A DNA stretch of 64,000 nucleotides, taken from Candidatus Latescibacterota bacterium. Lineage in GTDB: Bacteria > Krumholzibacteriota > Krumholzibacteriia > Krumholzibacteriales > Krumholzibacteriaceae. The position numbers were made by a program, and so were the translations under genes. The notes beneath the pieces are model-generated. The model ran no database searches. It was given only the letters and a program-made list of their open reading frames with translations, and had not been told where the DNA came from. The DNA is taken from positions 1,687 to 65,686 of the forward strand of contig JAHOYU010000078.1 in assembly GCA_019038625.1 (NCBI GenBank). The letters are read 5' to 3'. The first letter of the stretch is position 1; every line of letters starts with the position of its first letter. Positions 18,216-36,517 of the stretch are shown here, one piece after another.

Positions 18216-18217
18216 AT

Positions 18218-21490: not shown

Positions 21491-21768
21491 GAATTAGGGG
21501 TAAGAGAGATATCCCGTGCCGGGCGCGGAAGCAGGAATGAGCCCGGCGAAGCAACAAAATTTTACTACTATGGTCTGAGATTTTTTCTGTCTTTTGGCCC
21601 AGCGCTATAGGATTTCCCGCATTTATTAATGCCAGCGTCGGATTCTGCTTGCTTAATTACTTAAATAAATTATCTTGACATCTATCTGACGTTTATGACA
21701 GACTGCCGTCTGTTATATTGGACTAGGCGTTACGCATCGGTTGATAAATCAAATAAGGGGCCGCTGAA
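21491..21768. promoter_or_regulatory. 278-bp AT-rich intergenic region inside the cluster with a perfect inverted repeat ACAGAC-N4-GTCTGT (21698-21713) flanked by TTGACA (21675-21680) and TATATT (21714-21719)
   Basis: The only sizeable non-coding gap inside the co-directional cluster. The palindrome is read directly from the sequence. Spacing of the -35/-10-like hexamers is non-canonical, so promoter assignment is tentative. Confidence 0.3.
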
Positions 21769-21801
21769 GTGGCCGTAACATTCTTTCAGGAAAAGAATTA
21801 T

Positions 21802-22854
21802 ATGCGATTCATCGACTCAACGAATTTTGAAAGACTACTGAAGAAGCTCTCCGGCGAAGGTGAGCTTTTCGTGCCTGTACTTGATGAGGATTCACAAAAG
21901 AATCACTTTGAGCGAGTAGAGGCCTTCCCTCTTCCCGAAGGAACGAACTTCGAAGGTTTCAGGGCCGTCGAGACTCTAAAGGGTTTTGCTCAGCTTGTTC
22001 GTTCGATGGTGGCGAGGTATCCGACCGAAGGCATGGACGAGATGGATGTGGCGGAGTTACTTCCCACTTTCGTCATAGTCGGGGCCAAGGCCTGCGATGT
22101 CCGCGCCATGCAGCTCGTGGATAAGGTACAGGTCGAGGGTGAATTTACGGATCCTTTCTACAAGGCTCGCAGGGACAAGATGATCATTATCGCGTCGGAT
22201 TGTACTGAAGCGGGTGAAACCTGTTTCTGCAATCTGCTGGGCAGCAATCCATGGCCTGAAAGCGGTTTCGATCTTTCGATCTCGAAGGTCAACGGCGGCT
22301 ATCTGCTCGAGACTGGCAGTGACCGCGGAAAGGCGATCGAGGAAGAGAACAAGGACCTGTTTACCGATCCTCGAGAGGGCCAGGAGAAGAGCAGGGACGA
22401 GATCAGGATGACAGTCCTTGCCGGACTCAAGGCCACGAACAGGGATTACCCTTCCGGTGATAAAGTAACAGAACCACTCAGAGAAGCCCTGTCCGATCCA
22501 CTATGGCACGATGAAGCGGCCCGCTGCCTGGAATGCGGAGCCTGCACGAATATATGTCCCACATGCTACTGCTTCCTGCTCTTCGACCAGAAGGATGAGA
22601 GCGGTGAAGGGTACAAGAGAATAATGTCCTGGGATTCCTGCCAGGTAACGGGGTATGCCAGAATGGCCGGAATGGGGAATCCAAGGCCTCGACTCTCCGA
22701 TCGCGTGAAGCACCGCCTGTACCATAAGTACGATTATCTCGTGCTCAGTCACGGTGAAATATTCTGTACAGGTTGCGGAAGATGCATCGATGCCTGTTCC
22801 GCGAGCATTGACATGAGAGAAGTTTTTGGCAGGGTAACCAAGGCAGCCAAGTAA
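21802..22854 (+). CDS. AsrA/FlxB-family Fe-S protein, copy 5
   Basis: 'CLECGACTNICPTCYCFLLFD ... SWDSCQVTGYARMAGMGNPRPRLSDRVKHRLYHKYDY ... CTGCGRCIDAC'. Start moved to the ATG at 21802, behind RBS 'AGGAAAAG'. Confidence 0.65.
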   Translation: MRFIDSTNFERLLKKLSGEGELFVPVLDEDSQKNHFERVEAFPLPEGTNFEGFRAVETLKGFAQLVRSMVARYPTEGMDEMDVAELLPTFVIVGAKACDVRAMQLVDKVQVEGEFTDPFYKARRDKMIIIASDCTEAGETCFCNLLGSNPWPESGFDLSISKVNGGYLLETGSDRGKAIEEENKDLFTDPREGQEKSRDEIRMTVLAGLKATNRDYPSGDKVTEPLREALSDPLWHDEAARCLECGACTNICPTCYCFLLFDQKDESGEGYKRIMSWDSCQVTGYARMAGMGNPRPRLSDRVKHRLYHKYDYLVLSHGEIFCTGCGRCIDACSASIDMREVFGRVTKAAK

Positions 22855-22867
22855 GGGAGAGAAGGGT

Positions 22868-23686
22868 ATGAACAACCCGTATTATCCCATAGATACGGTC
22901 CTGGAAGATGTAATAACAGAGACACCTACGATTAAGACCTTCTGTCTCAAGCCAGTGCGTCCGGTCAAATTCAAATCTGGGCAGTTCATGCAGTTGACCG
23001 TTCCCGGTGTTGGTGAAGCCCCCTTCACTCCCAGTTCCGATCCGAACATCACGGAGAAGATGGAGATCACCATCCTCAAGACGGGTAAGGTAACAGACGC
23101 TCTTCACGAACTCAAGCCGGGGGCGAAAGTAGGGCTCCGGGGTCCCTTCGGCAAAGGGTACCCGCTGGAAAAACTTGAAGGCAAGGAAGTGGTCGTTGTA
23201 GGTGGTGGAGTAGGCCTGGCTCCGATGAGATCTTTACTCTACGGACTTTTCGATGATCCTTCAAAATACAAACGGATATCCATAAAGTTCGGCGCTCGTG
23301 AACCTGCCGAACTCTGTTTCAAGCGCCAGTACAACGAATGGGTCAATCTATCGCCGAACATCGACCTTACAACTACGATCGACATTCCTCATCCCGAATG
23401 GGATGGAAAGGTCGGCCTGGTGACGACACTGCTGGACGATCTGGATATAAACATAGCGGAAAGCTACGCGCTTTCCTGTGGTCCCGAGATCATGCTGAAG
23501 TTTGTTACGCTGAAGCTTCTCGAGGTTGGATACAAGCCGCCCCAGATATACCTTTCGATGAACAGGAAGATGTCCTGCGGAATGGGTAAGTGTGGGCGAT
23601 GCAATGTCGGGCATTACTATCTCTGCGTAGATGGCCCCGACATGTGTTACGACAAAATAAAGCACGTTCCAAATGTATTCGGTTAG
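22868..23686 (+). CDS. FlxA/AsrB/HydG-like FAD-NAD(P)-binding oxidoreductase with C-terminal [2Fe-2S], copy 2
   Basis: 'VVVVGGGVGLAPMRSL' and C-terminal 'CGMGKCGRCNVGHYYLCVDGP'; paralogue of 12901. Confidence 0.7.
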   Translation: MNNPYYPIDTVLEDVITETPTIKTFCLKPVRPVKFKSGQFMQLTVPGVGEAPFTPSSDPNITEKMEITILKTGKVTDALHELKPGAKVGLRGPFGKGYPLEKLEGKEVVVVGGGVGLAPMRSLLYGLFDDPSKYKRISIKFGAREPAELCFKRQYNEWVNLSPNIDLTTTIDIPHPEWDGKVGLVTTLLDDLDINIAESYALSCGPEIMLKFVTLKLLEVGYKPPQIYLSMNRKMSCGMGKCGRCNVGHYYLCVDGPDMCYDKIKHVPNVFG

Positions 23687-23740
23687 GATCATCCTGTTTG
23701 GGCTTCGGACCTGAGCCGGGGCCGGGAAGAAAAATCGTCT

Positions 23741-25531
23741 ATGAGTGAGATAAAAAACTATTGCTCCCTTTGTTCGCTGGCCTGCCCTGTTATTTTCAGG
23801 GGCGGAAAAAGAGGACCCATTTTTTCGAAGGATTCGCTTCTGACGATTGACTGGGACACCAGCGAAGAATCCAAATACGGCGGTAGTCTCTGTGCTCGTG
23901 GAAATGCCGCAATCGAATTCGTATCCCATCCGAAAAGAATCAATTATCCATTCGTTATCGGTGAGAGGACAAGGATAGAAGCGGCTGTCAAGGAGACTGC
24001 GAAAAATCTTTCTGCCATTAAGGATGAATCAGGTGGCGAGAAGATCGGTGTCCTGATAGGAGAGAATCTTACAAACGAAGAGGCAGCTCTGGCTCTGAAG
24101 TTCGCGAAAGAAGTCCTGGGGACTTCGAAGGTCGAGCTGTTCGCTCCAGATGATACACCATTATTCCGTTCATGGCTGGGGTGTGACCTTTCAGCCCTCG
24201 CGTCGACGGCAGAAAAACCGGCCGGCACGAAGAAAACCTTTCTCATAATCGGTGATTCTTTCTCTGAACATCCATGTACGGCAAAGCCGGTCCTCGCTGC
24301 CAGGTATTCGGGGAGGGGCAACGAAATAATCGTGATCAGTCCCGAGATCAGTCATACGGCATGGTTCGCGGGCAGGCACCTGCGGTGCAGGCCGGGAGGA
24401 GAAGCTGCTGTGGTAGCCGGCATGCTTAAGTCGGTTGCTGAGACGACGGCAAACGGTCTTGTGCCTGAATTGAAAAAACTGATGGACGGGGTCGAGTGGA
24501 ATGATATTGAAAGACTCGGGGGCGTGAAGCAGGACGCTATCGAAGGCGCCGCGGCTTCGGTCCTCGGTGCTGTAGGAATAGAGACTTACGTATCCAATAT
24601 CTTTGGCCGGTTCGCGATGCCAGGGCTCGTGTCGATCCTTGCAGAGGCGCTTACGGCGATATGCCCGGGGGATTCGAAATTCGATGCCCAGTTCGTGCAG
24701 CAGAATTCCTGGGGTATATATTCGGTGCTTGCAGCGGGCGAGACAACTCCGTTTCTCTCAAATCTCGAAGGTGAAGAGGTGGAGGCTCTGGTGATTCTGG
24801 GGCTGGATATCTTCTCGGCGTATCCCGCGGGCCCAATTGAAAACGCGCTGCGTGAAAAGAAATTTACAGTCGCTTCGCAGATGTTTTTCGGTCAGACCGC
24901 TTCGAGGGCGAATGTCGTTATTCCTGCGGCATGCCTGATGGAAAAGAAGGGGACTGTTTCTCCATCGTTCGGTGAAGACCTTGTCAGAGAAGACGTTATC
25001 GATCCTCCTGGAGGAGTGCTGACCGATGGTGAGTTCCTGGTCGCGCTTGCAAAGGAGATGGGTTCTGATCTTTCGGGTCCTGTCGATGTAGTGAGAAAGA
25101 TTTCCAGAGGCAGTTCGGGCGAAGGCGTTGTAGCGGACTGGACCGCCTTTTCGAACACCATCAGGGAGTTGGACGCGTCAGGAATGGTGTTGATACCCTG
25201 GAGCGAAGCTGTTCATGTCGCGGATGGTTCGACCAGCAGGAACCTTCACTGGTCAGAAGTGACATGTCCGGAACCAAGGCTGTATGTATCGAAAGAGACG
25301 ATGGATGAGCTTAACCTTGCCGAAAACGATCTGGTCAAGGTCTCTTCCGAGGGTGGAGAGGCTGTGCTGCCGGTCGAGGCGACCGAAAAACTGCAGGGCG
25401 GAACGGTAGCCGCGACGATTCATTTCCCCTCGGTAAGAAAGCTTTTCCCATGGAAGCTGGATGATCGCCGTGGAGAGGTGCTGCTCGCGCCGGTCCCGGT
25501 CAACCTTGACAGTCAGAGTGAGAAGAGCTGA
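23741..25531 (+). CDS. Molybdopterin-oxidoreductase-family protein (formate-dehydrogenase-alpha/NuoG-C-terminal-like), probably non-catalytic
   Basis: N-terminal Mo-bisPGD-type 4Fe-4S motif 'CSLCSLACP...(35 aa)...GSLCARG'. Only 596 aa. In the region aligning with the FdhF 'CCARVU/CHGPSVAG' active-site loop, no Cys/Sec-His was recognised by eye. Confidence 0.55.
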   Translation: MSEIKNYCSLCSLACPVIFRGGKRGPIFSKDSLLTIDWDTSEESKYGGSLCARGNAAIEFVSHPKRINYPFVIGERTRIEAAVKETAKNLSAIKDESGGEKIGVLIGENLTNEEAALALKFAKEVLGTSKVELFAPDDTPLFRSWLGCDLSALASTAEKPAGTKKTFLIIGDSFSEHPCTAKPVLAARYSGRGNEIIVISPEISHTAWFAGRHLRCRPGGEAAVVAGMLKSVAETTANGLVPELKKLMDGVEWNDIERLGGVKQDAIEGAAASVLGAVGIETYVSNIFGRFAMPGLVSILAEALTAICPGDSKFDAQFVQQNSWGIYSVLAAGETTPFLSNLEGEEVEALVILGLDIFSAYPAGPIENALREKKFTVASQMFFGQTASRANVVIPAACLMEKKGTVSPSFGEDLVREDVIDPPGGVLTDGEFLVALAKEMGSDLSGPVDVVRKISRGSSGEGVVADWTAFSNTIRELDASGMVLIPWSEAVHVADGSTSRNLHWSEVTCPEPRLYVSKETMDELNLAENDLVKVSSEGGEAVLPVEATEKLQGGTVAATIHFPSVRKLFPWKLDDRRGEVLLAPVPVNLDSQSEKS

Positions 25532-25533
25532 TC

Positions 25534-26013
25534 ATGGAAAAAAGAATATACATAAACATGAATCTTTGCAGCGGGTGTCGAGCCTGCGCAGCGGCCTGTG
25601 CTAACGGGCATCTCGAACAGGGCCTTCTCAAGCATGGGCCGGTCGAGGAAACTGCGTTGATGCCTCTTCACTGCCGTCATTGTGACAAGCCCCTCTGTCT
25701 TGAGGTCTGTCCGCAGGATGCGATCAAAAAGGACGAGAACGGGACGATAGTAAGGATGAGCCAGTTGTGTGTCGGGTGTAAGTCATGTATCATGGCGTGC
25801 CCGTTCGGCGTTATGTTCGTGCATTCTACCTGGCACGTATCACCGAAGTGCGATCTATGCCATGACAGGCTCGAAGATGATAAGGAGCCGAGATGCGTAT
25901 CGACATGCACATCCGGCGCGCTGGTTTTCGAAGAACTGACTGAACTGGAAAAGACTAACAGGAATGTTACCGAGGGCGGGCGATATTTCACCCGTTGGAT
26001 GTTGACTCGATAG
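25534..26013 (+). CDS. HycB/HyfA-like 4x[4Fe-4S] ferredoxin (formate-hydrogenlyase small Fe-S subunit family)
   Basis: Multiple CxxCxxCxxxC(P) motifs ('CSGCRACAAAC', 'CRHCDKPLCLEVCP', 'CVGCKSCIMACP', 'CDLCHDRL...CVSTC') in 159 aa. Confidence 0.7.
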   Translation: MEKRIYINMNLCSGCRACAAACANGHLEQGLLKHGPVEETALMPLHCRHCDKPLCLEVCPQDAIKKDENGTIVRMSQLCVGCKSCIMACPFGVMFVHSTWHVSPKCDLCHDRLEDDKEPRCVSTCTSGALVFEELTELEKTNRNVTEGGRYFTRWMLTR

Positions 26014-26025
26014 TGGAGAGGACAA

Positions 26026-26958
26026 ATGGACGCAGCACGGTATCTGATTGATTATCTGATATTCCCGGGGTTTTTGTTTACCGCGGTAGTAGGTCTTCTT
26101 ACCACCTGGGTCGACCGCAAGGTCACAGCGAGGGTCCATTGGAGGGTCGGACCTCCCTGGTACCAGCCCTTCGCTGACACGGTAAAACTTCTGGGCAAGG
26201 AAGTCATCGTTCCCGCCGGAGCGAGAAAGACGGGATTTCTTCTAATGCCGGTCGTTGGCCTGGCGGCGGCGACGCTGGCCTCTACCATCCTCTGGAAAGC
26301 TAATCTCGATCCTGGGAGTTCTTTCATCGGCGATTCGATAGTGGTCCTCTATATCATGACGATTCCGGCTATCGCGATGATCCTCGGGGCAAGCGCTTCA
26401 GGCAACCCGCTCGCCATTCTCGGTGGGGCCAGGGAGATGAAACTGCTTTTCGCCTACGAACTCCCACTTGTAATAGCTATGCTGACCACCGTGTACAAGG
26501 CTGGATCATTCTCCTTTGAAAACATCCTTGGTATGCAGGCTGCTTCGGGACAGTTTCTCGGCAGTTTTTCGGGGACCCTGGCTTTCATAGTAGCTATTTT
26601 CTGCGCGCAGGCAAAATGTTCGATCCTGCCTTTCGACATAGCAGAGGCCGAGACCGAACTTGCCGGGGGAGCTCATATAGAGTATTCCGGCGCTCCATAC
26701 GCGGTAGTCAGACTGAATATGGCGATCATGTTTTTCATCGTGCCGGTATTCATCGTAACGATGTTCTGGGGAGGATTCACCTTCGTCGGGTGGAAGATTC
26801 TCACATCCATCCTCAAATATGTCGCAATAATCGTTATCATGGTCCTTATAAAGAATACAAATCCAAGAGTCCGGATAGACCAGGCAGTGAGGTTTTTCTG
26901 GGGACCCATGCTGGTATTATCGATAATAGCCCTGATCCTGGCGGTGCTGGGTTACTAG
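26026..26958 (+). CDS. NuoH/HycD/MbhM-like membrane subunit of group-4 hydrogenase
   Basis: Polytopic membrane protein with the NuoH-family N-terminal signature 'TWVDRKVTARVHWRVGPPWYQPFADTVKL'. Confidence 0.8.
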   Translation: MDAARYLIDYLIFPGFLFTAVVGLLTTWVDRKVTARVHWRVGPPWYQPFADTVKLLGKEVIVPAGARKTGFLLMPVVGLAAATLASTILWKANLDPGSSFIGDSIVVLYIMTIPAIAMILGASASGNPLAILGGAREMKLLFAYELPLVIAMLTTVYKAGSFSFENILGMQAASGQFLGSFSGTLAFIVAIFCAQAKCSILPFDIAEAETELAGGAHIEYSGAPYAVVRLNMAIMFFIVPVFIVTMFWGGFTFVGWKILTSILKYVAIIVIMVLIKNTNPRVRIDQAVRFFWGPMLVLSIIALILAVLGY

Positions 26959-26973
26959 GTCGCGGAGGCAAGT

Positions 26974-27387
26974 ATGTCGCTGACTTTGAAAGCATTAAAG
27001 AAATCACCGTGGGTGTTTCATGTCAATACGGGTGCATGCAACAACTGTGACATTGAAATTCTAGATGCTCTGACTCCAAGGTTCGATGTGGAAAGATTCG
27101 GCATCGTACTTGTCGGAAGCATAAGGCATGCTGATGTTCTTTTGATCAGCGGCCCGGTCTCGAGAAATATTCTTCCGAGATTGAAGCGTCTTTATGACGC
27201 GGCGCCTAAACCGATCAAGGTGATCGTCGTAGGGGCATGTGGTTGCACGTGTGGGATCTTTAAGGACGGGTACAACATTATCGGCCCGGTCGACAAGCAC
27301 ATCCCCGTGGATGCGTATGTGCCGGGATGTCCGCCGAAGCCTGAAACGCTGATTGCGGGAGTGGTGAAAGTACTCAGTACGCTGTAG
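26974..27387 (+). CDS. NuoB/MbhJ/EchC-like hydrogenase small subunit (proximal 4Fe-4S)
   Basis: 'CNNCDIE', 'VGACGCTCG', 'YVPGCPPKPE' are the four Cys ligands of the N2-type cluster. Confidence 0.85.
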   Translation: MSLTLKALKKSPWVFHVNTGACNNCDIEILDALTPRFDVERFGIVLVGSIRHADVLLISGPVSRNILPRLKRLYDAAPKPIKVIVVGACGCTCGIFKDGYNIIGPVDKHIPVDAYVPGCPPKPETLIAGVVKVLSTL

Positions 27388-27427
27388 ACAGGATAACAGG
27401 GCGGCCCATCGCCAGAGAGAGCGCAGA

Positions 27428-27949
27428 ATGCAGAAAGAAGAACTGAAAAAGAAAATAGCCGAAAAGTTCGGAGAAAAGGTCACAATAGATGAACGTTCGG
27501 AGAAACGTGTATACATCTACGTAGAGAACGATATCTGGGTAGACCTGGCCGATTTCCTGTTCAACGATATGGACATCCGTTTTGATACGGGGGTTGGACT
27601 CGATGACCGGGATGGAGTCGAAATAATGTTTTTCTTCCCTGTCGACAGCGAACATTACTTTGTGACGATCAAGACTTTCCTTAAAAAACCTCATCCGGCA
27701 ATTGAGTCGATCTCGAATATCATACCGGGTGCAAAGTGGATAGAGAGAGAGATCTTCGAGATGTTTGAAGTGAATTTCCTCAATCATCCGGATCTCAGGC
27801 CCGTTCTCAGGTGCGATACGCGTCCCAAGGACTTCTATCCCCATAAGAGGGAAAATAAGGATGACCACGAGACGGCAAGAAGGAAGAACGACGGAGACGA
27901 TAGATTCAACGAAATCTGGGGGAAGCCCTACAAGGGCAAGAATCCCTGA
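27428..27949 (+). CDS. NuoC/MbhK-like 30-kDa-family subunit
   Basis: NuoC-like 'AKWIEREIFEMFEVNFLNHPDLRPVL' region; ~173 aa between NuoB-like and NuoD-like genes. Confidence 0.65.
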   Translation: MQKEELKKKIAEKFGEKVTIDERSEKRVYIYVENDIWVDLADFLFNDMDIRFDTGVGLDDRDGVEIMFFFPVDSEHYFVTIKTFLKKPHPAIESISNIIPGAKWIEREIFEMFEVNFLNHPDLRPVLRCDTRPKDFYPHKRENKDDHETARRKNDGDDRFNEIWGKPYKGKNP

Positions 27950-27993: not shown

Positions 27994-29199
27994 ATGGTAA
28001 AAAAGATCCCAATCGGCCCGTTTCATCCGATTCTTGAAGAACCCGAGTTTTTCGAGCTGCATGTCGATGGTGAAAAAGTAGTCGATATTGACATGACGAT
28101 AGGCTGGAGCCACCGTGGGATCGAGATCCTGTCGGAGCACAAGACATGGGATCAGGTCCCGTTTCTGGTGGAGAGGATCTGCGGTATCTGTTCCTGCTCC
28201 CATCCATATGCATACGTGAAGGCTGTAGAGGACCTTTTACAGGTGGAAGTGCCGAAACGCGCTCAGTATGTACGGGTGATAATAGCAGAGTTGGAAAGGC
28301 TTCACAGCCATCTGCTGTGGACAGGCCTTGCCGGCCATTTCATCGGCTATAACACTGTTTTCATGTGGTGCTGGAAATACAGGGAACCTGTTCTCGACAT
28401 CCTCGAGGCCGTAACAGGAAACAGGAACCATTACGCGATGATGCGTATCGGAGGCGTAAGACGGGATATCCCCATGGAGGAGTACGGAAATATCCGAAAG
28501 CTTCTCGATTATGTCTGGGAAAAGAACAACATGCTGACGAACGCGATTCTCGATGATCCGGTAATACACGCGCGGACCAAGAATGTCGGGATCCTGGATA
28601 AGAAGCATTGCAGACTGTATGGAGCTCTTGGACCAACGGCAAGGGCGGGTGGTTATGATGTCGACGCGAGACGGGACCACCCGATCGACGCCTATGGAGA
28701 ACTCGATTTCGACGTGATCGTCTGCAAGAACGGTGATGTGTTCGACAAGGCTGTCGTAAGACAGCTCGAGAACTTCGAATCGATAAAGATCATCCGCCAG
28801 TGTCTCGACAGGCTCGAGGATCTGGGGCCGGGTACGGAAGAGGATCTCTGCCTTGAGATAGGCGAGATTCCTCCGGGAGAAGGTATCGGCACATACGAAG
28901 CGCCGAGAGGAGAGGTTTTTCACTATATACGTTCGAATGGAAAGAATATGCCTATGAGGCACAAGGTGAGAGCCCCGAGCTTCAACAATATTCTGACGAA
29001 CGAACACAGTGTGATTGGAAATTCCGTTGCGGACGCAGGCCTGATAACCGCGGCTGTCGATCCGTGCTATTCATGCACAGAGAGAGTCGGCAGGGTGGAT
29101 GTAGGCACTGGTGACCGTTATATGATGAGCGAGGGAGACCTTATCAGGCTTTCTCAGGAGAAGACAGAACAGATAAGAAAAGAACTGGAAGGTAACTGA
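27994..29199 (+). CDS. Group-4 membrane-bound [NiFe] hydrogenase large subunit (MbhL/EchE/NuoD-like)
   Basis: Both NiFe-ligating motifs intact: L1 'RICGICSCSH' (RxCGxCxxxH) near the N-terminus and L2 'DPCYSCTER' (DPCxxCxxR) at the C-terminus; 401 aa. Confidence 0.85.
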   Translation: MVKKIPIGPFHPILEEPEFFELHVDGEKVVDIDMTIGWSHRGIEILSEHKTWDQVPFLVERICGICSCSHPYAYVKAVEDLLQVEVPKRAQYVRVIIAELERLHSHLLWTGLAGHFIGYNTVFMWCWKYREPVLDILEAVTGNRNHYAMMRIGGVRRDIPMEEYGNIRKLLDYVWEKNNMLTNAILDDPVIHARTKNVGILDKKHCRLYGALGPTARAGGYDVDARRDHPIDAYGELDFDVIVCKNGDVFDKAVVRQLENFESIKIIRQCLDRLEDLGPGTEEDLCLEIGEIPPGEGIGTYEAPRGEVFHYIRSNGKNMPMRHKVRAPSFNNILTNEHSVIGNSVADAGLITAAVDPCYSCTERVGRVDVGTGDRYMMSEGDLIRLSQEKTEQIRKELEGN

Positions 29200-29233: not shown

Positions 29234-31111
29234 ATGAATGATCTTCTGTATATTATTATCGTTGCGGCAGTAGCTGGCATTATTCCTCTCCTGGTCCCAA
29301 GGAAGGGCAGCATCGTCGCCGGGATAACAAGCCTGATAGCAGCCGTCTGGATCTTTATCCGTTCGATGCAGCTTTTCAACGCCGGTGAGATCGCATGGAG
29401 TGTCCCTCTGTTCAACCTTGGAGGAGAGATACCGTTCGAGTTCGCGCTGAGGCTGACAGGGTTCAGTTCATTCGTCCTGTTGTTTATCAGCCTCTTCGGA
29501 GTGCTTATCATCCTGTATTCTCTCGGGTATATGAGAGGCAAGGGTCAGGCTTCGATCTATTATTCGTATCTTATGTGGACCCTTGCTGCCGCGGCAGGAG
29601 TGGTCATGGCAGACAACCTGCTTATTCTTCTCGTATTCTGGGAGATTCTGACGGCGATCCTTTTCTTCCTGATAAACATGGGTGGAGAAGGACACGAGAA
29701 GGCTGCGGCGAAGACTTTCACGATACTTGGATTCACCGATGCTACGATGCTTCTCGGAATCATACTCATATGGACGACCTTCGGAACGATATCGATCTCC
29801 GAACTGGCGGCGAATCCGATAGTACCTTCGTCCCCGGTCACAATAATCGCTTTCATATGTCTGTTTATCGGCGCTATCGCCAAGGCCGGCGGGATGCCTT
29901 TTCACAGCTGGATACCTGCTATCGCCAAGCCGACCCACGCTTCGGTCATCGCCTTCCTTCCAGCATCGCTTGACAAGCTTCTTGGCATATATCTGCTGGG
30001 ATTGCTGACTCTGAGGATATTTGCCATCGAACCAGGCGGGCCTCTTTCGATGATGATGATGATAGTCGGCGCGGTTACGATAGTCTTTGCCGTTCTGATG
30101 GCACTCATTCAGAAAAACGTCAAAAAACTTCTTTCCTTTAACGCCATCAGCCAGGTTGGATACATGGTGCTCGGAGTAGGAAGCGGAATCCCCGTCGCCA
30201 TCGCGGGTGGACTCTTTCATATGGTCAACCACGCGATATACAAGAGCGGACTCTTTCTCGGTGCCGGTGCTGTGGAGAAAATGACTGGAACGACTGAGCT
30301 CGAAGATCTCGGAGGACTGGCGAGGTTGATGCCAGTGACGTTCATTACGATGTTAATAGCGGGACTCACTATGTCTGGCGTTCCGCCATTCAGCGGGTTC
30401 GTTTCCAAATGGCTCCTTTACCAGGGGATGCTCGAAGGAAAATACATGATTTTCCTCATAGTGGCGATCTTCGGCAGCGCCCTGACGATGGCTTCGTTCA
30501 TAGGAGTTTTCCACGCTATCTTCCTCGGCCGCAGGCCCGAGAAATTCGATAATGTTCGTGAAGTCGACTTCTCCATGCAGCTTCCGATGATTTTCATAGC
30601 AATTCTCTGTATCGGGTTTGGAATATTCGCCAGCTATCCGCTGCAGAATTTCATTCTTCCTGTAGTAAGCGATGCGAGCGGGATCTCGATGTCCGGTTTT
30701 GAAGTGATCACTGAGAACACGAATGGATTCTGGAGCCCGACGAGCGCTACGATCCTTATGGTGGTAGGGCTGGTAGTAGGACTGATAATCTTTGCCTTCG
30801 GACGCATCAAAAAGAACCTGAGATATGACGATAATACGTGGACAGGGGGAAACATCCTCGAGAATGAAGAGATAAGGATCCCCGGCACACATTTCTATAA
30901 AACAGTGACAGATGAACTGAACCCGGTTGCGACCGGAGCATTCAACGATGGAGAGAAAGGCGCCTATGATCTGTACAATATCTTTGGCCGCCTTGGAGAT
31001 CTCGTTGTTCAGTTCCTGAGGTCCATGCATGACGGGATCCTGTCCACCTATCTTTCGTGGGCCGTGATAGGTCTCGGTGTACTTGCATTCATACTAATGT
31101 TCCGTTGGTAA
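29234..31111 (+). CDS. MrpA/NuoL-like cation/proton antiporter-type membrane subunit (MbhH-like, long form)
   Basis: 625 aa, ~16+ TM helices, NuoL/M/N-family conserved region ('SQVGYMVLGVGSG...HMVNHAIYKSGLFLGAG'). Confidence 0.75.
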   Translation: MNDLLYIIIVAAVAGIIPLLVPRKGSIVAGITSLIAAVWIFIRSMQLFNAGEIAWSVPLFNLGGEIPFEFALRLTGFSSFVLLFISLFGVLIILYSLGYMRGKGQASIYYSYLMWTLAAAAGVVMADNLLILLVFWEILTAILFFLINMGGEGHEKAAAKTFTILGFTDATMLLGIILIWTTFGTISISELAANPIVPSSPVTIIAFICLFIGAIAKAGGMPFHSWIPAIAKPTHASVIAFLPASLDKLLGIYLLGLLTLRIFAIEPGGPLSMMMMIVGAVTIVFAVLMALIQKNVKKLLSFNAISQVGYMVLGVGSGIPVAIAGGLFHMVNHAIYKSGLFLGAGAVEKMTGTTELEDLGGLARLMPVTFITMLIAGLTMSGVPPFSGFVSKWLLYQGMLEGKYMIFLIVAIFGSALTMASFIGVFHAIFLGRRPEKFDNVREVDFSMQLPMIFIAILCIGFGIFASYPLQNFILPVVSDASGISMSGFEVITENTNGFWSPTSATILMVVGLVVGLIIFAFGRIKKNLRYDDNTWTGGNILENEEIRIPGTHFYKTVTDELNPVATGAFNDGEKGAYDLYNIFGRLGDLVVQFLRSMHDGILSTYLSWAVIGLGVLAFILMFRW

Positions 31112-31136
31112 GAGCGGGTAAGGGAAAGGCAGAAGA

Positions 31137-31733
31137 ATGGAGATTTTTCTCCTCGTATTGACGATATTCATGATTGTTGGATCGATCGTGGCGATAGAAT
31201 CAAAGAACCTTCTTTCGTCGGTGATCTCTGTCGGTATAGTCGGCTTCAGTCTCGGGATCATTTTTCTTATGCTGGGGGCTCCCGATATTGCGATCACACA
31301 GGTCGTAGTAGAGATACTGATACTCGTTATCCTGATCAGAGCGACGATCACAACTGACAATACTGCTATCGAAAAGCACAAGGACACCTTTCCTGTCGTT
31401 GTCAGCCTGATCTTTTTCGGGCTGTTCCTGATCTTCGCCTATTTTGCGGTTCAGGAACTTCCGCAGTTCGGAGATCCTCTTCCCAGAGAAGCGGCAGCTC
31501 ACTATCTCGAAAATGGCGCAGAAGAGACGGGCGCTATGAATATTGTTACAGCCGTGCTTCTCGATTACAGGGCCTATGATACCATGGGGGAAGCGACCGT
31601 ACTTTTTGCTTCTATCGTAGGTTCATTTGTCATCCTGAGAAGACGCGGGAGAAAACATCGGAAGGAAGAAGATACTGAAAAGGTCGGGATCCTCGAAGAT
31701 GAGGATATCAAAAAGAACTTCGAGGGATTCTAG
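31137..31733 (+). CDS. MrpB-N-terminal-like (MbhD/MbhE-like) membrane subunit
   Basis: Small hydrophobic protein at the MrpB position of Mrp-Mbh operons; weak family assignment. Confidence 0.45.
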   Translation: MEIFLLVLTIFMIVGSIVAIESKNLLSSVISVGIVGFSLGIIFLMLGAPDIAITQVVVEILILVILIRATITTDNTAIEKHKDTFPVVVSLIFFGLFLIFAYFAVQELPQFGDPLPREAAAHYLENGAEETGAMNIVTAVLLDYRAYDTMGEATVLFASIVGSFVILRRRGRKHRKEEDTEKVGILEDEDIKKNFEGF

Positions 31734-31743
31734 AGGGAGCGCT

Positions 31744-32244
31744 ATGGATAAGATGGATAAATACATAAAGGACAGCAAGAGCGGGATGACTCCTATAGTC
31801 AAGACGGTAGTGCGTTTTGTCATGGGTATCATCTTTATCTTCGGCGCCTATGTCGTTCTTTACGGCCATCTCACCCCGGGCGGAGGCTTCGCTGGCGGAG
31901 TGATACTTGCCTGTGGATTCATAATCCTTACTCTCGCTTTCGGTAAGGGGCTCGGACTTTCGAAGCTGAGCGATACCTGGGCGTCCATTCTTGATAATTC
32001 CGCTGCCCTGTTATTTCTCACGATCGGTTTTATAGGTTTTTCCGGGGGTTACTTTTTTACGAACGTACTTGGAAAGGGCAAGGAGTTTGCTCTTTTCAGC
32101 GCGGGAACCATACCCCTTTGCAATATAGCTATCGGATTGAAGGTCACAGCGTCCGTATTCGCGGTATTTCTTACGCTTTCGATCTTCGGACGGTTTATTT
32201 CAAAACTTGTTGATGATTATGAAGATGATACTGAAAAGGAGTAA
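31744..32244 (+). CDS. MnhB-domain membrane subunit (MrpB C-terminal-like, MbhF-like)
   Basis: 'GHLTPGGGFAGG' matches the MnhB signature GHxxPGGGFxGG. Start moved to the ATG at 31744 behind RBS 'AGGGAG'. Confidence 0.6.
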   Translation: MDKMDKYIKDSKSGMTPIVKTVVRFVMGIIFIFGAYVVLYGHLTPGGGFAGGVILACGFIILTLAFGKGLGLSKLSDTWASILDNSAALLFLTIGFIGFSGGYFFTNVLGKGKEFALFSAGTIPLCNIAIGLKVTASVFAVFLTLSIFGRFISKLVDDYEDDTEKE

Positions 32245-32250
32245 GGCCTG

Positions 32251-32601
32251 ATGATCCTGTACTTTCTGACGCTGGTGCTTTTCGTGATGGGACTTTACTG
32301 TCTCGTGGCGAAAAAGAATATCATAAAGAAGATCATCGGGATCGTCATCACCGAGTATTCCATCAACCTTTTCCTGGTGCTTGTCGGCTGGCGTAAAGGC
32401 GGGATAGCTCCGATCCTTCTTAAGGGTATGCAGAAGAGTGAGATCGTGGAGAAAGGCGTAGATCCATTACCCCAGGCGCTGGTACTGACTTCGATCGTGA
32501 TCGGGCTCGGTGTACTGGCTCTGATGGTGTCGATCTGCCTGAGACTTTACGAAAAATACAAGACATTCGATATGTCCGAGATTAACAGGCTTCGAGGATA
32601 G
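32251..32601 (+). CDS. MrpC/NuoK-like membrane subunit (MbhG-like)
   Basis: 116 aa, three TM helices, NuoK/MnhC-like. Confidence 0.55.
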   Translation: MILYFLTLVLFVMGLYCLVAKKNIIKKIIGIVITEYSINLFLVLVGWRKGGIAPILLKGMQKSEIVEKGVDPLPQALVLTSIVIGLGVLALMVSICLRLYEKYKTFDMSEINRLRG

Positions 32602-32620
32602 CGTACAAGCAGGAGTACAA

Positions 32621-34120
32621 ATGCAGGCATATTTTCCATTATTTACAGCGATTCCACTGGCCATGGCCTTCATCAATCTGCTGGTCACAAAGGTCAACAA
32701 GAAGGTAACTGATTTTCTTGCATTCCTGGCGATGATCAGCCTGGCCTCAATGGCTATCATGATGCTTTTCGAGTCTCCTTTCTCTTATCAGTTGGGCGGG
32801 TGGGCGCCACCCATCGGTATCCTGCTGGTATCGGATGGCCTCAGCTCGGTGATGCTGGTCATCATCAATGTTATTGGCCTGCTGTCCATGATCTACTCGA
32901 TGAAGTACATGACCACATATACGGCCAAGCCGAAGTTCTACACACTGTTCCTTCTGATGATCGCAGGGATGAACGGCGTAGTCATAACTGGAGACATGTT
33001 CAACTTGTATGTCTTCCTTGAGATCGCGTCGATCGCCTCGTACGCTCTCGTAGGATTTGGCTGCGAGAAAAATGAACTCGAGGCCTCGTTCAAGTACCTG
33101 ATCCTGGGTGGAGTGGCCAGCACGGTTGTACTCTTTGGAATAGCCTTCCTCTATTCGATGACTGGAACTCTCAACATGCCGGATCTCGCGGTCAAGATTC
33201 CAGAGATCGGACACAACCACGCGATGGGATTCGTAATGGCTCTGTTCATCATGGGATTCGGGCTCAAGGCGTCGTCTGTTCCGTTCCATGCCTGGTTGCC
33301 AGACGCGCATCCGAGCGCGCCAGCTCCCATATCCGCCATGCTCTCAGGCGTACTTATCAAGGCTCTTGGCATCTATTCGATCGCAAGGATCATGTTCAAC
33401 ATATTCGGTTCAGACACTATGGTCTCTTCGATACTCATGTTCCTGGGAGCGCTTTCGATGCTTGTCGGCGTCTTCCTCGCTGTCGGACAGCATGATTTTA
33501 AAAGAATGCTGGCGTATCACTCGATAAGCCAGATGGGATATGTGATGATGGGGCTCGGTCTTGGTCTCAATCCGAACGTACCCCCGGCGCTCGCGGCGCT
33601 GGCGTTATTCGGCGGGCTCTTTCATATGGTCAACCACGCTGTTTTCAAGTCCTGCCTCTTTCTCTGTGCCGGTTCTTTCGAATACCGGACGGGGACGAAA
33701 GACAAAACAGAAATGGGTGGGCTTATCAGGCGTATGCCTTTCACATCTGCTACCTGCTCGATAGCCTCGTTATCGATTTCAGGTGTGCCGCCATTTAACG
33801 GATTCTGGAGCAAGCTGATCATCATCGTTGCGTTCATGAAAGCCGGATATACGATATATGGTATTCTGGCGATCCTGGTCGCCTTTATGACGATGATCTC
33901 TTTCATCAGATTACAAATGAATGTTATTTTCGGAAAGCTTCCGGAGAAGTTCGAGAAAATCAAAGAAGCTCCCTTCGCGATGGTACTACCATTGGTCATT
34001 CTGGCAATTCTGTGCCTTGCGCTAGGTATCTTCTATCCGTTGGTCGATCAGAACCTGATCGAAGCTGCGAAAGACGCGTTACTGGACAAGGCGCAATATA
34101 TAAGTTTTCTGGGCAGGTAA
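32621..34120 (+). CDS. MrpD/NuoM-like antiporter-type membrane subunit (second large antiporter subunit)
   Basis: 499 aa; 'SQMGYVMMGLGLG...HMVNHAVFKSCLFLCAGS' NuoL/M/N-family signature. Confidence 0.75.
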   Translation: MQAYFPLFTAIPLAMAFINLLVTKVNKKVTDFLAFLAMISLASMAIMMLFESPFSYQLGGWAPPIGILLVSDGLSSVMLVIINVIGLLSMIYSMKYMTTYTAKPKFYTLFLLMIAGMNGVVITGDMFNLYVFLEIASIASYALVGFGCEKNELEASFKYLILGGVASTVVLFGIAFLYSMTGTLNMPDLAVKIPEIGHNHAMGFVMALFIMGFGLKASSVPFHAWLPDAHPSAPAPISAMLSGVLIKALGIYSIARIMFNIFGSDTMVSSILMFLGALSMLVGVFLAVGQHDFKRMLAYHSISQMGYVMMGLGLGLNPNVPPALAALALFGGLFHMVNHAVFKSCLFLCAGSFEYRTGTKDKTEMGGLIRRMPFTSATCSIASLSISGVPPFNGFWSKLIIIVAFMKAGYTIYGILAILVAFMTMISFIRLQMNVIFGKLPEKFEKIKEAPFAMVLPLVILAILCLALGIFYPLVDQNLIEAAKDALLDKAQYISFLGR

Positions 34121-34137
34121 ATGAAAAAGGGTAATCG

Positions 34138-34623
34138 ATGAAACGATTCTTACATTTTCTGATTCTACTGGGCATCTGGATGCTTTTGACGTGGTCCGTC
34201 GCCTGGCAGGAAGTTCTGGTCGGTGTCGTTGTCGCGCTTATAGCGGAACTGCTGCTTGGAGATATCTTTCCAATAGGAGCGATCAAGCTCTTCAACCCGA
34301 TCAGGCTCTACTGGATGATAGTCTATGCTGTCGTATTTTTAGGTTATGTCATACGGGCGAACTTCGATGTTGCCTACCGGGTCCTGAATCTCTACATGCC
34401 GATCCGCCCCGGGATCGTCAAGGTCAAGATGAGGTTGAAGAGTGATATGGCGAGGACGTTCCTTGCGAATTCTATCACGCTGACACCCGGAACGCTGACG
34501 GTGGATTGTGTCGGTGAAAACCTGTACGTTCACTGGATAAACATTACTTCCGACGATCCGGAGAAGGAAACGGAGATCATCGTATCCCGTTTCGAAAATC
34601 TGTTAGAAAGGATATTTGAGTGA
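34138..34623 (+). CDS. MrpE/MnhE-like subunit (MbhA-like)
   Basis: ~161 aa with two N-terminal TM helices and a soluble tail, in the conserved Mrp order E-F-G. Confidence 0.5.
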   Translation: MKRFLHFLILLGIWMLLTWSVAWQEVLVGVVVALIAELLLGDIFPIGAIKLFNPIRLYWMIVYAVVFLGYVIRANFDVAYRVLNLYMPIRPGIVKVKMRLKSDMARTFLANSITLTPGTLTVDCVGENLYVHWINITSDDPEKETEIIVSRFENLLERIFE

Positions 34624-34874
34624 GTGTCTTTATCGCGCTGTTGATTCTCTGCATTTTCCTCTGCCTGTACAGGGTAGGGAAGGGGCCTACAGCACCCGAC
34701 AGGACGGTGGCGATTGATATTCTTGGAACCCTCGTAGTCGGTTTCTGCGCGATATACTCGATCATCACCAAGAAAGACCTGTATATGAATATCGGAATAT
34801 CCTGGGCTCTTCTGAGTTTCATCGGAACGCTTGCCCTGTCAAAATACCTTGAGGGGAGGGGTTTCGATGAATGA
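34620..34874 (+). CDS. MrpF/MnhF-like subunit (MbhB-like)
   Basis: 84 aa, three TM helices; overlaps the neighbouring genes by a few nt. Confidence 0.5.
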   Translation: MSVFIALLILCIFLCLYRVGKGPTAPDRTVAIDILGTLVVGFCAIYSIITKKDLYMNIGISWALLSFIGTLALSKYLEGRGFDE

Positions 34875-35211
34875 GACGATAGGCCTGATATTTCTTATCA
34901 TCGGTATCACTTTTGACGTAATCGGTTGTATCGGCCTGGTAAGGCTACCCGATGTATATAACCGCCTCCAGGCGGCCACTAAATGCGTCACTCTGGGAAC
35001 GAGCATGATATTACTGGCGGTAGTCTTTTATACCGGCATAAACTCGATCGGTGTAAAAGCCCTGCTCTGTATCTGGTTCGTCCTGATAACTTCTCCAACG
35101 GGAGCTCATGCCATAGCGAGAGCTGCTCACAAGTCAGGTGTCCGGTTATGGAAGGGCAGCGTAATGGATAAATATGCTGAGGACAATGAAGGTGCCGACA
35201 GCTCCTCCTGA
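34867..35211 (+). CDS. MrpG/MnhG-like subunit (MbhC-like)
   Basis: 'MNETIGLIFLIIGITFDVIGCIGLVRLPDVYNRLQAATK' is the typical MnhG N-terminus; ATGAATGA overlap with mrpF. Confidence 0.55.
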   Translation: MNETIGLIFLIIGITFDVIGCIGLVRLPDVYNRLQAATKCVTLGTSMILLAVVFYTGINSIGVKALLCIWFVLITSPTGAHAIARAAHKSGVRLWKGSVMDKYAEDNEGADSSS

Positions 35212-35250
35212 CACGGGAGGCTTTAACTGTAGCGGGGGTTGGTAGATATA

Positions 35251-35877
35251 ATGCGTTATCCAAAACTGAGAGAACTCAAGGAAGCTATCACAGCCCTGAT
35301 CAAGGGGCCGTACACATCGAAGTTCCCCAAGGTACCCGCGACGGTTCCTGAACATTTCCGTGGTACACCGACCTATGTGCCTGACGAATGTGTCGGTTGC
35401 GGTTCGTGCGCCCAGGTATGCCCGGCCGGGGCCATAGAGATCGTTGATGAATACAGGGAAGATGAAGGGAAGATGGTACGCAGGATCGAGAGAAATTGGG
35501 GCAACTGCATATTCTGCAGCCAGTGCTATGAGTACTGCATCACAAACAAGGGAATCGAGCTCGACCCTGATTTCGAGAAATCATGCTTTGATATGGCTGA
35601 TGCGATCAACACGCATGACAAGGAACTGCTCTTCTGCGAGCATTGCAGTACCCCTATCACGGCAAAAGACCATATTAAGTGGATCGGCAAAAAGCTTGGA
35701 GAGCTTTCGTTCGCGAACCCGACCCTTACAGTATACAAATATGGAGAATTAAAATTGGTGGAAGAGGGAACCGGGGACAATCCTCGGAAAAATCTCGAAA
35801 GAGATAATTTCATCAGGGTCCTCTGCCCGAACTGCCGTGCCGCTTATATCCTTTCGGATGAGTGGGGGACAAGCTGA
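35251..35877 (+). CDS. NuoI/MbhN/EchF-like 2x[4Fe-4S] ferredoxin subunit
   Basis: 'CVGCGSCAQVCPAGAI' and 'CIFCSQCYEYC'. The ORF track begins at a TTG (35239); the first ATG is 35251. Confidence 0.7.
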   Translation: MRYPKLRELKEAITALIKGPYTSKFPKVPATVPEHFRGTPTYVPDECVGCGSCAQVCPAGAIEIVDEYREDEGKMVRRIERNWGNCIFCSQCYEYCITNKGIELDPDFEKSCFDMADAINTHDKELLFCEHCSTPITAKDHIKWIGKKLGELSFANPTLTVYKYGELKLVEEGTGDNPRKNLERDNFIRVLCPNCRAAYILSDEWGTS

Positions 35878-35931: not shown

Positions 35932-36028
35932 ATCTTGTAAATGAGAGGGAATGGCACTTCATTAATCAGGACGGCAGGTGATGAGAGTTCCCTGCCAGGG
36001 GAATCGTACCCGGGAGGTGCTTGGATAT

Positions 36029-36517
36029 ATGGAGAAGTTGAGGGAAAAATTGCTGGCACGCCTTGAAGGCAAGCGTTTCGGCGTAGTCGGTATAGGCAAT
36101 GTGATCAAGGGAGATGATGGCGCCGGCTGTGTAGTCGTAGAGGGTCTTCAGGGGAAGATAGACCTCCCGATCGTCGATTGCGCCGAGGTCCCTGAAAATT
36201 ACGGGGGATGGGTAGAGAGGCAGGATCTTGACAGTGCTATATACATCGATGCTGTTGATTTCGGAGGAGAACCGGGGGAAGTGAGGATAATTCCTCTGGA
36301 AAAGATGATGGTGACAGCGAGCAGTACGCATACCCTGTCTCTGCATTATATGATCATCTATCTGAGAGATGAGTGGAAGGGCGATCCGATCATGATCGGG
36401 ATCCAGCCGAAAGAGATGAGGATCGGAGACGGGCTCAGTGATGAGGTGAGCGCCGGGGTGAAGAAATTGACCGATATTCTGATCGAGGCAGCTCTGACTG
36501 ACAAGCAGGATAGATAA
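36029..36517 (+). CDS. hycI: [NiFe]-hydrogenase maturation endopeptidase (HycI/HybD family)
   Basis: 'FGVVGIGNVIKGDDGAGCVVVEGL' N-terminal motif of hydrogenase maturation proteases; start placed at 'MEKLREKL'. Confidence 0.7.
   Translation: MEKLREKLLARLEGKRFGVVGIGNVIKGDDGAGCVVVEGLQGKIDLPIVDCAEVPENYGGWVERQDLDSAIYIDAVDFGGEPGEVRIIPLEKMMVTASSTHTLSLHYMIIYLRDEWKGDPIMIGIQPKEMRIGDGLSDEVSAGVKKLTDILIEAALTDKQDR

Follow-up and report, generated by a model that had tools for sequence, protein, structure and literature searches.

The closest described counterpart of the gene cluster analyzed here is an "enigmatic" group-4 [NiFe] hydrogenase region that Matheus Carnevali et al. reported in 2019 from Saganbacteria RX5A, in which a molybdopterin oxidoreductase that "could not be identified as a formate dehydrogenase" lies beside cooF-, asrA-, and asrB-like genes (PMC6349859). 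That region was called "similar to Mbh," and related large subunits were noted in Zixibacteria and Omnitrophica, not in Krumholzibacteriota; the account gives no residue-level analysis, clade definition, or function past the likeness to Mbh (PMC6349859). We analyzed a 64,000-nucleotide stretch (here referred to as the window) of contig JAHOYU010000078.1 from Candidatus Latescibacterota bacterium, assigned to the Krumholzibacteriaceae (Krumholzibacteriota), in which the genes from 21769 to 35877 match the RX5A cluster in content and order when compared with its published description. At the center of our analysis is a gene of this cluster that encodes a 596-amino-acid (596-aa) protein with the fold of molybdenum bis-pyranopterin guanine dinucleotide (Mo-bisPGD) enzymes (here referred to as the molybdopterin-fold protein). 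We consider it on balance probable that this protein is a catalytically dead, probably cofactor-free adaptor or electron-relay subunit of an NAD(P)H-linked, ion-translocating Mbh-type [NiFe] hydrogenase and that the complex is not a formate hydrogenlyase (FHL). A literature search for this complex in Krumholzibacteriota or Latescibacteria, or for an NADPH-linked Mbh, returned only the 2019 Saganbacteria description and no later characterization; reports on Thermodesulfovibrio, Staphylothermus, and Ace Lake and that of Nobu et al. had no bearing on it.

The cluster resembles several characterized systems in part. In the E. coli FdhF-HycB FHL, too, a subunit of the formate dehydrogenase (FDH) fold precedes a HycB-type ferredoxin with four clusters and a group-4 [NiFe] hydrogenase. 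The window encodes a HycB-type ferredoxin and a group-4 [NiFe] large subunit that has both CxxC motifs, but the catalytically competent FDH subunit of FHL is missing. Compared with FdhF, the molybdopterin-fold protein lacks the selenocysteine (Sec) or Cys, the His, and the Arg of the active site, is ~120 aa shorter, and has a cofactor site that appears decayed; in addition, FHL has no NAD(P)H/FAD diaphorase pair, whereas the molybdopterin-fold gene is always preceded by one. Mrp subunits, as in the Thermococcus Fdh-Mfh-Mnh system, are present in the window cluster, and the Mbh of Pyrococcus furiosus has the same Mrp-type membrane arm. In P. furiosus, sulfhydrogenase I (SHI; soluble, NADPH linked, group 3b) and Mbh (ferredoxin linked, group 4) are two separate enzymes; in contrast, the window combines an SHI-like diaphorase with a group-4 Mbh via the degenerate FDH-like and HycB-like subunits.

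Inactive proteins of the Mo-bisPGD fold are already known in NuoG, StnC, and QrcB, and a stand-alone, widespread variant in an uncharacterized architecture is distinct from these. StnC, a NuoG-like electron-transfer subunit linked to NADPH, offers a precedent: its FdhF-like domain is described as catalytically inactive, bears Fe-S clusters, and acts as an electron-transfer and assembly element beside the NADPH-binding module (PMC10482914). That domain is part of an ~1170-aa protein of a soluble bifurcating enzyme, in which it is fused to GltD-like and NuoG N-terminal domains, whereas the protein studied here is a separate polypeptide, and its sequence similarity to the StnC/NfnABC-type (Bfu) transhydrogenases (PDB 8OH5 and 9BOV) is weak (7e-11 and 2.5e-9). 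QrcB of the Desulfovibrio Qrc complex is a molybdopterin-family subunit annotated as cofactor-less ("molybdopterin-binding-like"); it is periplasmic, belongs to a quinone reductase, and is matched only weakly (NF041783, 3.4e-10, 38.7 bits against a cutoff of 440).

The molybdopterin-fold gene starts with ATG and runs through 596 uninterrupted codons. The protein scored 42 bits against the Pfam model PF00384 (Molybdopterin; cutoff, 24) and 43 bits against PF01568 (Molydop_binding; cutoff, 26.8), both modest yet above the curated cutoffs. Among the NCBIfam models, the FDH-alpha family model TIGR01591 gave 130.6 bits and did not reach its cutoff of 666, and the NuoG models gave 42 to 79 bits, with TIGR01973 at 42.4 bits short of its cutoff of 470. 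The closest solved structures are FDH alpha subunits (7bkb_D, with an E value of 2.7e-22, followed by 9t1s_L, 7qv7_S, 6tg9_A, and FdhF 1aa6). An AlphaFold2 model built on an alignment of 41 homologs was confident (predicted local distance difference test score, 89.4; predicted template-modeling score, 0.91), and Foldseek matched it to FDH, FdhF, and Nap structures with query-normalized TM-scores (TMq) of 0.75 to 0.78 and E values of ~1e-31 to 1e-33; the TMq for FdhF 7z0t_A was 0.77. The predicted structure thus has the four-domain Mo-bisPGD fold of FDH alpha subunits. We found 127 close homologs with 50 to 92% identity, all of ~595 aa, whose source names are Candidatus Krumholzibacteriota or Latescibacteria proteins from metagenome-assembled genomes; at this gene, the window is 92% identical to a Krumholzibacteriia metagenome-assembled genome (locus L014). 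Because of these homologs of nearly constant length and the confident model, we regard the gene as real and under selection. The protein begins at its FS0 iron-sulfur motif (residue 8) and has no Fer2_4 or Fer4 N-terminal domain. We rejected two other descriptions of the gene: that a TGA codon interrupts a Sec-containing gene, since the open reading frame (ORF) begins at the FS0 motif exactly like FdhF and has no internal stop, and that the enzyme is periplasmic, since the N terminus has no twin-arginine translocation signal. Cys179 is invariant in the Krumholzibacteriota family, in which Cys216 and Cys308 are conserved in at least 90% of sequences; in the wider clade, conservation is absent at all three positions.

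To locate the catalytic residues, we used a MAFFT alignment of the family with E. coli FdhF, NuoG, NapA, and FdnG, 27 distant relatives, and 17 Cys-type FDHs taken from an exhaustive search of representative proteins. The N-terminal Cys8-x2-Cys11-x3-Cys15...Cys51 aligned column for column with FdhF Cys8/11/15/42. Across 40 sequences that are 18 to 68% identical to the query, Cys8, Cys11, and Cys51 were invariant and Cys15 was conserved in at least 90%, which places the FS0 cysteines among the few positions conserved across these sequences and among the best kept in the clade. The active-site loop of FdhF, "CARVUHGPS," aligned with "LFAPDDTPL" (window positions 24137 to 24163), so that Asp137 stands in place of Sec140 and Asp138 in place of His141; a HMMER alignment with FdhA 7bkb_D was one residue out of register, pairing the Cys with Asp138 and the His with Thr139. 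FdhF Arg333, in the R-G-Q-N-N motif, corresponds to Phe318 in "QFVQQN" and to Phe, Leu, or Pro in the wider clade; an earlier, smaller MAFFT run placed this segment differently, and neither alignment offers an Arg. FdhF Lys44, which lies between FS0 and the pterin, is replaced by Arg53, invariant in the 41-sequence family, and Asn176 is replaced by Asp. Judged by these alignments, every FDH catalytic residue is lost. A sequence-only reading of the window had reported a Mo-bisPGD-type 4Fe-4S motif, no Cys/Sec-His loop, and no in-frame TGA and had concluded that the protein is not a true formate dehydrogenase; the aligned cysteines, the Asp pair at the loop, the absence of any internal stop, and the replaced Sec/Cys140, His141, Arg333, and Lys44 together with the TIGR01591 score agree with it on each count. 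That reading overlooked the acidic residue at the ligand position: Pro136-Asp137-Asp138 is invariant in the 41-sequence family, and all 27 distant clade members have Asp138, as do at least 90% of the 40 sequences.

The same alignments suggest that the protein most likely carries no Mo or tungsten (W) cofactor. Of 105 columns with at least 85% conservation among Cys-type FDHs, 75 are kept by FdnG, 64 by NapA, 41 to 47 by the family, and 35 by the cofactor-free E. coli NuoG; when only the 50 such columns that are also common to NapA and FdnG are counted, the family keeps 22 and NuoG 17. Both Rossmann ribose-binding Asp residues, at the end of beta-2 in the dinucleotide-binding domains, are lost (FdhF Asp202 of "DPR" is Ser200 in the query, and Asp429 of "QD" is an invariant Gln380). 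At five positions where every cofactor-binding relative has a conserved Gly, bulky residues stand instead (G153L, G298I, G320T, G334V, and G345L), as expected when a ligand cavity fills in, and FdhF Arg581 and Lys679 are likewise replaced. In an alignment of 69 sequences, Lys44 and Asn176 are present in every one of the 16 that have Cys-His; among the 53 without Cys-His, which include NuoG, Asp occupies position 176 in 45 and Arg occupies position 44 in 40. The molybdopterin-fold family carries both K44R and N176D. No molybdenum cofactor (Moco) biosynthesis or fdhD genes were found in the window or in eight Pfam-annotated ±10-kb contexts of homologs. The Mo-free status proposed in the sequence-only reading is therefore probable as far as sequence can indicate it; the conserved acidic loop and the retained motifs of domains III and IV keep a cofactor-bearing alternative alive.

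The family and NuoG have in common two deletions, of FdhF 343-373 and 516-552, and the K44R and N176D replacements, K44R being present in three of the four NuoG sequences compared. An exhaustive profile search returned 4,735 proteins at an E value of ≤1e-3; after the close family came a run of 550- to 620-aa proteins that aligned end to end and whose loop reads P-[D/E]-D or PPxD, never Cys-His. In a neighbor-joining (NJ) tree (590 columns, Kimura distances, 200 bootstraps), 37 stand-alone proteins were monophyletic with 100% bootstrap support, and their nearest neighbors were two NuoG proteins, with 54% support. The two replacements, the two large deletions, and this weak sister grouping bear out the earlier description of the protein as NuoG-C-terminal-like, and we regard it as a degenerate descendant of an FdhA/FdhF-type FDH, of the same kind as the C-terminal domain of NuoG and possibly its sister. 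That domain likewise has a Mo-bisPGD fold without a Cys/Sec ligand and one N7/FS0-type [4Fe-4S] motif, is of similar size (~600 to 620 aa), and belongs to a protein that, as we propose for the molybdopterin-fold protein, joins an NAD(P)H-oxidizing flavoprotein module to a group-4-hydrogenase-type module. NuoG has an N-terminal 2Fe-2S/4Fe-4S domain (N1b, N4, and N5) that carries the main electron chain, whereas the molybdopterin-fold protein stands alone without it; NuoG partners NuoE and NuoF, whereas the molybdopterin-fold protein partners sulfhydrogenase beta/gamma-like subunits; and the NuoG complex ends in a quinone reductase, whereas the NuoD homolog here keeps the NiFe cysteines of a real [NiFe] hydrogenase. 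The P-[D/E]-D loop, conserved in the stand-alone clade, is missing from the NuoG sequences examined. The library of representative proteins also includes many N-terminally extended FdhA-like proteins of ~870 to 910 aa without Cys-His (P0190, P0197, P0206, P0211, P0246, P0247, P0256, P0261, and P0266), most of which share N176D and/or K44R; degenerate FDH domains seem to be common beyond NuoG.

To assess the conservation of the gene order, we viewed the called genes around eight homologs and then compared the window proteins with 50 loci by tblastn, judging the order wherever the contig reaches. The order beta-like, gamma-like, molybdopterin-fold, HycB-like, NuoH, NuoB, NuoC, NiFe large subunit, and MbhH was constant in ~45 loci. 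The beta-like gene lay directly upstream of the gamma-like (AsrB-like) gene in every locus reaching that far, and the HycB-like gene always lay directly downstream of the molybdopterin-fold gene. The same order was found in relatives that are only 23 to 32% identical at the molybdopterin-fold protein (L006, L007, L009, L052, and, in part, L054). A soluble version occurs in L008 (8188 to 14730), where beta-like, gamma-like, FDH-like, HycB-like, NuoB, and NuoC genes are followed by those for the NiFe large subunit and a 2x[4Fe-4S] protein; NuoH, Mrp, and all other membrane genes are missing. The loop of the L008 FDH-like protein reads "LEPE" instead of PDD, and a 133-aa member of its 90%-identity cluster is annotated as Candidatus Stahlbacteria. 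An extra ORF of 229 to 260 aa, absent from the window, lies between the HycB-like and NuoH genes in L007 (12344 to 13126) and L009 (4965 to 5654); Pfam gave no match for either ORF. We also compared the conservation of the nine subunits in the 21 Krumholzibacteriota loci that have all nine genes (among L003, L004, and L012 to L049, excluding L014). The FDH-like subunit was the least conserved in 20 of the 21, with a median identity of 59% compared with 63 to 88% for the others; NuoB-like (88%) and gamma-like (81%) subunits were the most conserved. Such a rank fits a scaffold better than a catalytic subunit.

The features of the operon are listed in Table 1. The best PDB matches of the beta-like and gamma-like proteins are the P. 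furiosus sulfhydrogenase 1 beta (9nez_B, 4e-41) and gamma (9nez_C, 1e-47) subunits. The gamma-like protein has FAD-binding and NAD(P)-binding domains followed by a C-terminal 2Fe-2S domain and is 79 to 86% identical across Krumholzibacteriota loci. The large subunit matched MbhL best (6cfw_L, 4.7e-92) and HycE next (7z0s_E), and we consider it a true [NiFe] hydrogenase subunit because both NiFe-binding CxxC motifs are present along with a HycI-type protease. The operon probably begins after the gap upstream of the beta-like gene, with an inferred promoter there, because the conserved colinear block in ~45 loci begins with that gene; a sigma-70 consensus scan of the gap scored no site, a scan that is uninformative for this phylum.

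Table 1. Molybdopterin-fold gene and surrounding hydrogenase operon, in window positions
Feature	Positions	Strand	Basis or remark
AT-rich intergenic gap, 278 bp	21491..21768	+	Largest in gene array; probable start of hydrogenase operon
Sulfhydrogenase-beta/AsrA-like Fe-S subunit, 361 aa	21769..22854	+	Pfam Fer4_22 3.8e-29; NCBIfam ShyB/HydB/AsrA
Sulfhydrogenase-gamma/AsrB-like subunit, 272 aa	22868..23686	+	Pfam NAD_binding_1, FAD_binding_6, DHODB_Fe-S_bind
Molybdopterin-fold gene	23741..25531	+	596-aa FdhA/NuoG-C-terminal-like Mo-bisPGD-fold protein, by alignment without catalytic residues
[4Fe-4S] (FS0/N7-type) segment	23762..23902	+	Cys8, Cys11, Cys15, Cys51-Ala-Arg53-Gly54
Pro136-Asp137-Asp138 loop, replacing Sec/Cys-His loop	24146..24154	+	Translation, alignments
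HycB/CooF-like polyferredoxin, 159 aa	25534..26013	+	Pfam Fer4_11; 16 Cys = four [4Fe-4S] motifs
NuoH/MbhM-like membrane subunit	26026..26958	+	Pfam NADHdh 5.9e-66
NuoB/MbhJ-like hydrogenase small subunit	26974..27387	+	Pfam Oxidored_q6
NuoC/MbhK-like subunit	27428..27949	+	Pfam Complex1_30kDa
Group-4 [NiFe] hydrogenase large subunit, MbhL-like, with C-terminal extension	27994..29199	+	RICGICSCSH, DPCYSCTER
Mrp/Mbh antiporter-type membrane module	29234..35211	+	Pfam; same order in relatives
MbhH-like	29234..31111	+	Pfam
MbhD/E	31137..31733	+	Pfam
MnhB	31699..32244	+	Pfam
NuoK-like	32251..32601	+	Pfam
MrpD-like	32621..34120	+	Pfam
MnhE	34138..34623	+	Pfam
MrpF	34620..34874	+	Pfam
MnhG	34831..35211	+	Pfam
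MbhN/NuoI/HycF-like 2x[4Fe-4S] subunit	35239..35877	+	Pfam Fer4_7, Fer4; same place in relatives
HycI-type hydrogenase maturation protease	35978..36517	+	Pfam HycI 1e-11

Several other redox gene sets surround the operon. On the opposite strand (36612 to 38995), it is adjoined by a 2-oxoacid:ferredoxin oxidoreductase-like pair, consisting of a POR gamma-type protein and a TPP/POR_N protein with a 2x[4Fe-4S] tail, which is a possible source of reduced ferredoxin. Upstream, the + strand from 15434 to 21490 encodes a 292-aa NuoE/HydC-like protein, which has a Fer4 motif and an additional FAD/NAD Rossmann fragment at its N terminus, together with a 617-aa NuoF/HydB-like protein and a fusion of 1111 aa; these genes, a set also present in L014, unite Bfu-type and Hdr-type flavin modules. 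The NuoF-like ORF (16362 to 18215) overlaps the longest fusion ORF (18155 to 21490) by 61 nt, and the true start of the fusion may be further downstream than 18155. A second Hdr/Flx-like set (5804 to 14220, + strand) comprises FrhB/FdhB-like, MvhD, a 1019-aa HdrA, a second MvhD, an Fe-S protein, another AsrA-like/AsrB-like pair (344 and 277 aa), and a small Fe-S protein and is followed by an FrhB-like gene (14273 to 15397). Genes of central metabolism lie at 46495 to 53341 (+ strand) and include pyruvate kinase, a citrate-lyase beta::acyl carrier protein fusion, citrate lyase alpha (CitF), and a long phosphoenolpyruvate carboxykinase-like protein (659 aa).

In the adaptor/electron-relay model that we favor, electrons would pass between the NAD(P)H/FAD site of the gamma-like subunit and the [NiFe] site, by way of the beta-like clusters, the [4Fe-4S] cluster of the molybdopterin-fold protein and/or the HycB-like clusters, and then the MbhN-like and MbhJ-like clusters. 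The degenerate FDH body would be the docking scaffold that once held FdhF on HycB and now holds the diaphorase there, and the complex as a whole would couple NAD(P)H:H+/H2 oxidoreduction to ion translocation. The data show the loss of the catalytic residues, the retained cluster motif, the fixed synteny, and a true [NiFe] hydrogenase; the electron path and reaction direction, the use of NAD(P)H, and the lack of a cofactor are inferred. The connector or electron-transfer role put forward in the sequence-only reading fits a protein in which the FS0 cysteines are among the best conserved positions of the clade while the protein itself is the least conserved subunit, and the cluster is unlikely to be a formate hydrogenlyase, as that reading also held, because the molybdopterin-fold protein is not a canonical FDH. 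The standard potentials are −320 mV for NAD(P)+/NAD(P)H and −414 mV for H+/H2, so forming H2 from NAD(P)H would require either a low H2 pressure or an input of ion-motive force; the reverse, H2-driven reaction could generate ion-motive force.

Several points weigh against this model. NAD(P)H is assigned as the substrate by homology, and the absence of the cofactor by sequence indicators. Without a pterin, electrons from the beta-like subunit would need some other way into the buried [4Fe-4S] cluster, and the diaphorase might instead dock on HycB directly. Asp138 lies at or beside the metal-ligand position and is kept by at least 90% of a clade so divergent that its members are only 21 to 68% identical to the query; why a pure scaffold should need such a residue is not obvious, and in NarG-type enzymes Asp genuinely serves as a Mo ligand. 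The conserved Asp138 could be a metal ligand, could form a salt bridge to Arg53, or could contact the diaphorase. As a speculation, a bridge to Arg53, which is equally conserved, would replace the Lys44-pterin contact. The fold is nearer to active FDH and Nap (TMq, 0.75 to 0.78) than to mycobacterial NuoG (0.62), and some cofactor-contact motifs are kept, namely "TA..AN-VVIPAA...EK.GT," the His-Pro of G-x-x-x-x-x-H-P, and Asp429 of the query, which aligns with FdhF Asp478. Finally, the sister grouping with NuoG could be long-branch attraction among degenerate sequences.

These points give some room to a reading in which the Mo/W-bisPGD enzyme is active and, like those of the NarG type, has Asp as its metal ligand; it would oxidize or reduce some small substrate and pass electrons to H+ via HycB/Mbh and/or to NAD(P)+ via the beta/gamma-like subunits. 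The invariant Asp137-Asp138 pair in the family, the presence of Asp138 in at least 90% of the clade, the proximity of the fold to active enzymes, the many polar invariant residues, and the motifs kept in domains II, III, and IV all speak for it. We nevertheless consider it unlikely, given the replacement of both ribose-binding Asp residues, Lys44, Asn176, Arg581, Lys679, and five cofactor-site Gly residues, a count of generic Mo-bisPGD columns near that of cofactor-free NuoG (22 and 17 of 50), and the occurrence of K44R and N176D only in sequences without Cys-His. Two segments of canonical catalytic subunits are also deleted as in NuoG, the protein is the least conserved subunit of the complex, and Moco or fdhD genes are absent from the ±10-kb contexts. 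If the protein had no catalytic metal site but still bound one pterin dinucleotide or both, in a purely structural or electron-conducting role between the beta-like subunit and the [4Fe-4S] cluster, the pterin would supply the path needed from the surface to the buried cluster; the domain III/IV motifs are partly kept, and the acidic loop could cap a metal-free or differently metallated pterin. However, the ribose- and phosphate-binding residues are lost and we know of no precedent for a metal-free bis-PGD relay, which leaves this improbable. A genuine FDH whose active site is noncanonical, in an Mrp-type formate hydrogenlyase of the Thermococcus Fdh-Mfh-Mnh kind, would account for the FHL-like order of FDH-like, HycB-like, and Mbh/Mrp genes and for FDHs being the top hidden Markov model and PDB matches. 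With Sec/Cys140, His141, and Arg333 all replaced, a TIGR01591 score of 131 bits against a cutoff of 666, and a constant NAD(P)H/FAD module that is foreign to FHL, we find it extremely improbable.

The remaining alternatives concern the relation to NuoG. The sequence-only reading had described the NuoG-like N-terminal Fe-S domain as fused to HdrA, with the molybdopterin-family protein encoded separately. Pfam and NCBIfam confirm both statements: the 1111-aa protein (18155 to 21490, + strand) joins an N-terminal Fe-S domain of the NuoG/HydA type to a complete HdrA (HdrA2 model, 781 bits), and the genes at 21769 to 22854 and 22868 to 23686 lie between it and the molybdopterin-fold gene. The same reading paired the two as a split NuoG, in which the molybdopterin-fold protein would be the detached C-terminal half linking a NuoE/NuoF/HdrA flavin-bifurcating module to the hydrogenase. 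The fusion lies on the same strand 2.2 kb upstream, the arrangement recurs in the 92% relative L014, and the protein does resemble the NuoG C-terminal domain. This pairing did not hold up beyond those two loci, however, and we find it highly doubtful. The fusion and the NuoF-like gene lie upstream only in the window and in L014 and are absent from ±6 to 10 kb of ~45 other loci, including Krumholzibacteriota relatives at 61 to 68% identity, in which a thioredoxin/AhpC-like gene precedes the operon instead. The universal partners in these loci are the two intervening genes that the sequence-only reading had skipped, the sulfhydrogenase beta/gamma-like pair. With the 278-bp gap separating the fusion from the conserved operon, these data indicate that the "split NuoG" pairing is a local adjacency and not a conserved association. 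A different link to NuoG is tentative and, in our judgment, rather unlikely: the stand-alone clade would be sister to the NuoG C-terminal domain or a survivor of its ancestral form, and the complex an evolutionary intermediate between FHL and the N module of complex I that works as an NAD(P)H:H+/H2 ion-translocating oxidoreductase. An NAD(P)H flavoprotein module would then have been bolted onto an ion-pumping group-4 hydrogenase via a dead FDH, and the Asp loop would have a new, noncatalytic use, such as contacting the diaphorase or filling the pterin cavity through a salt bridge to Arg53.

The adaptor/electron-relay model bears on how such clusters are read in other genomes. Annotation pipelines name the close homologs "anaerobic selenocysteine-containing dehydrogenase," "formate dehydrogenase major subunit," or "NuoG," and with such names the cluster reads as a formate hydrogenlyase in metagenome surveys. 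The capacity to convert formate to H2 would then be overcalled in Krumholzibacteriota, in relatives labeled Latescibacteria, and in other metagenomic lineages that carry the clade. The characters held in common with NuoG also make the clade a concrete test object for how complex I gained its NADH-input module. In our literature search we found no characterized case of NAD(P)H-linked activity of a group-4 hydrogenase. If NAD(P)H feeds the Mrp-coupled [NiFe] hydrogenase directly, fermenters could dispose of electrons from NAD(P)H as H2 by spending ion-motive force and, in the reverse direction, could gain ion-motive force from H2-driven NAD(P)+ reduction.

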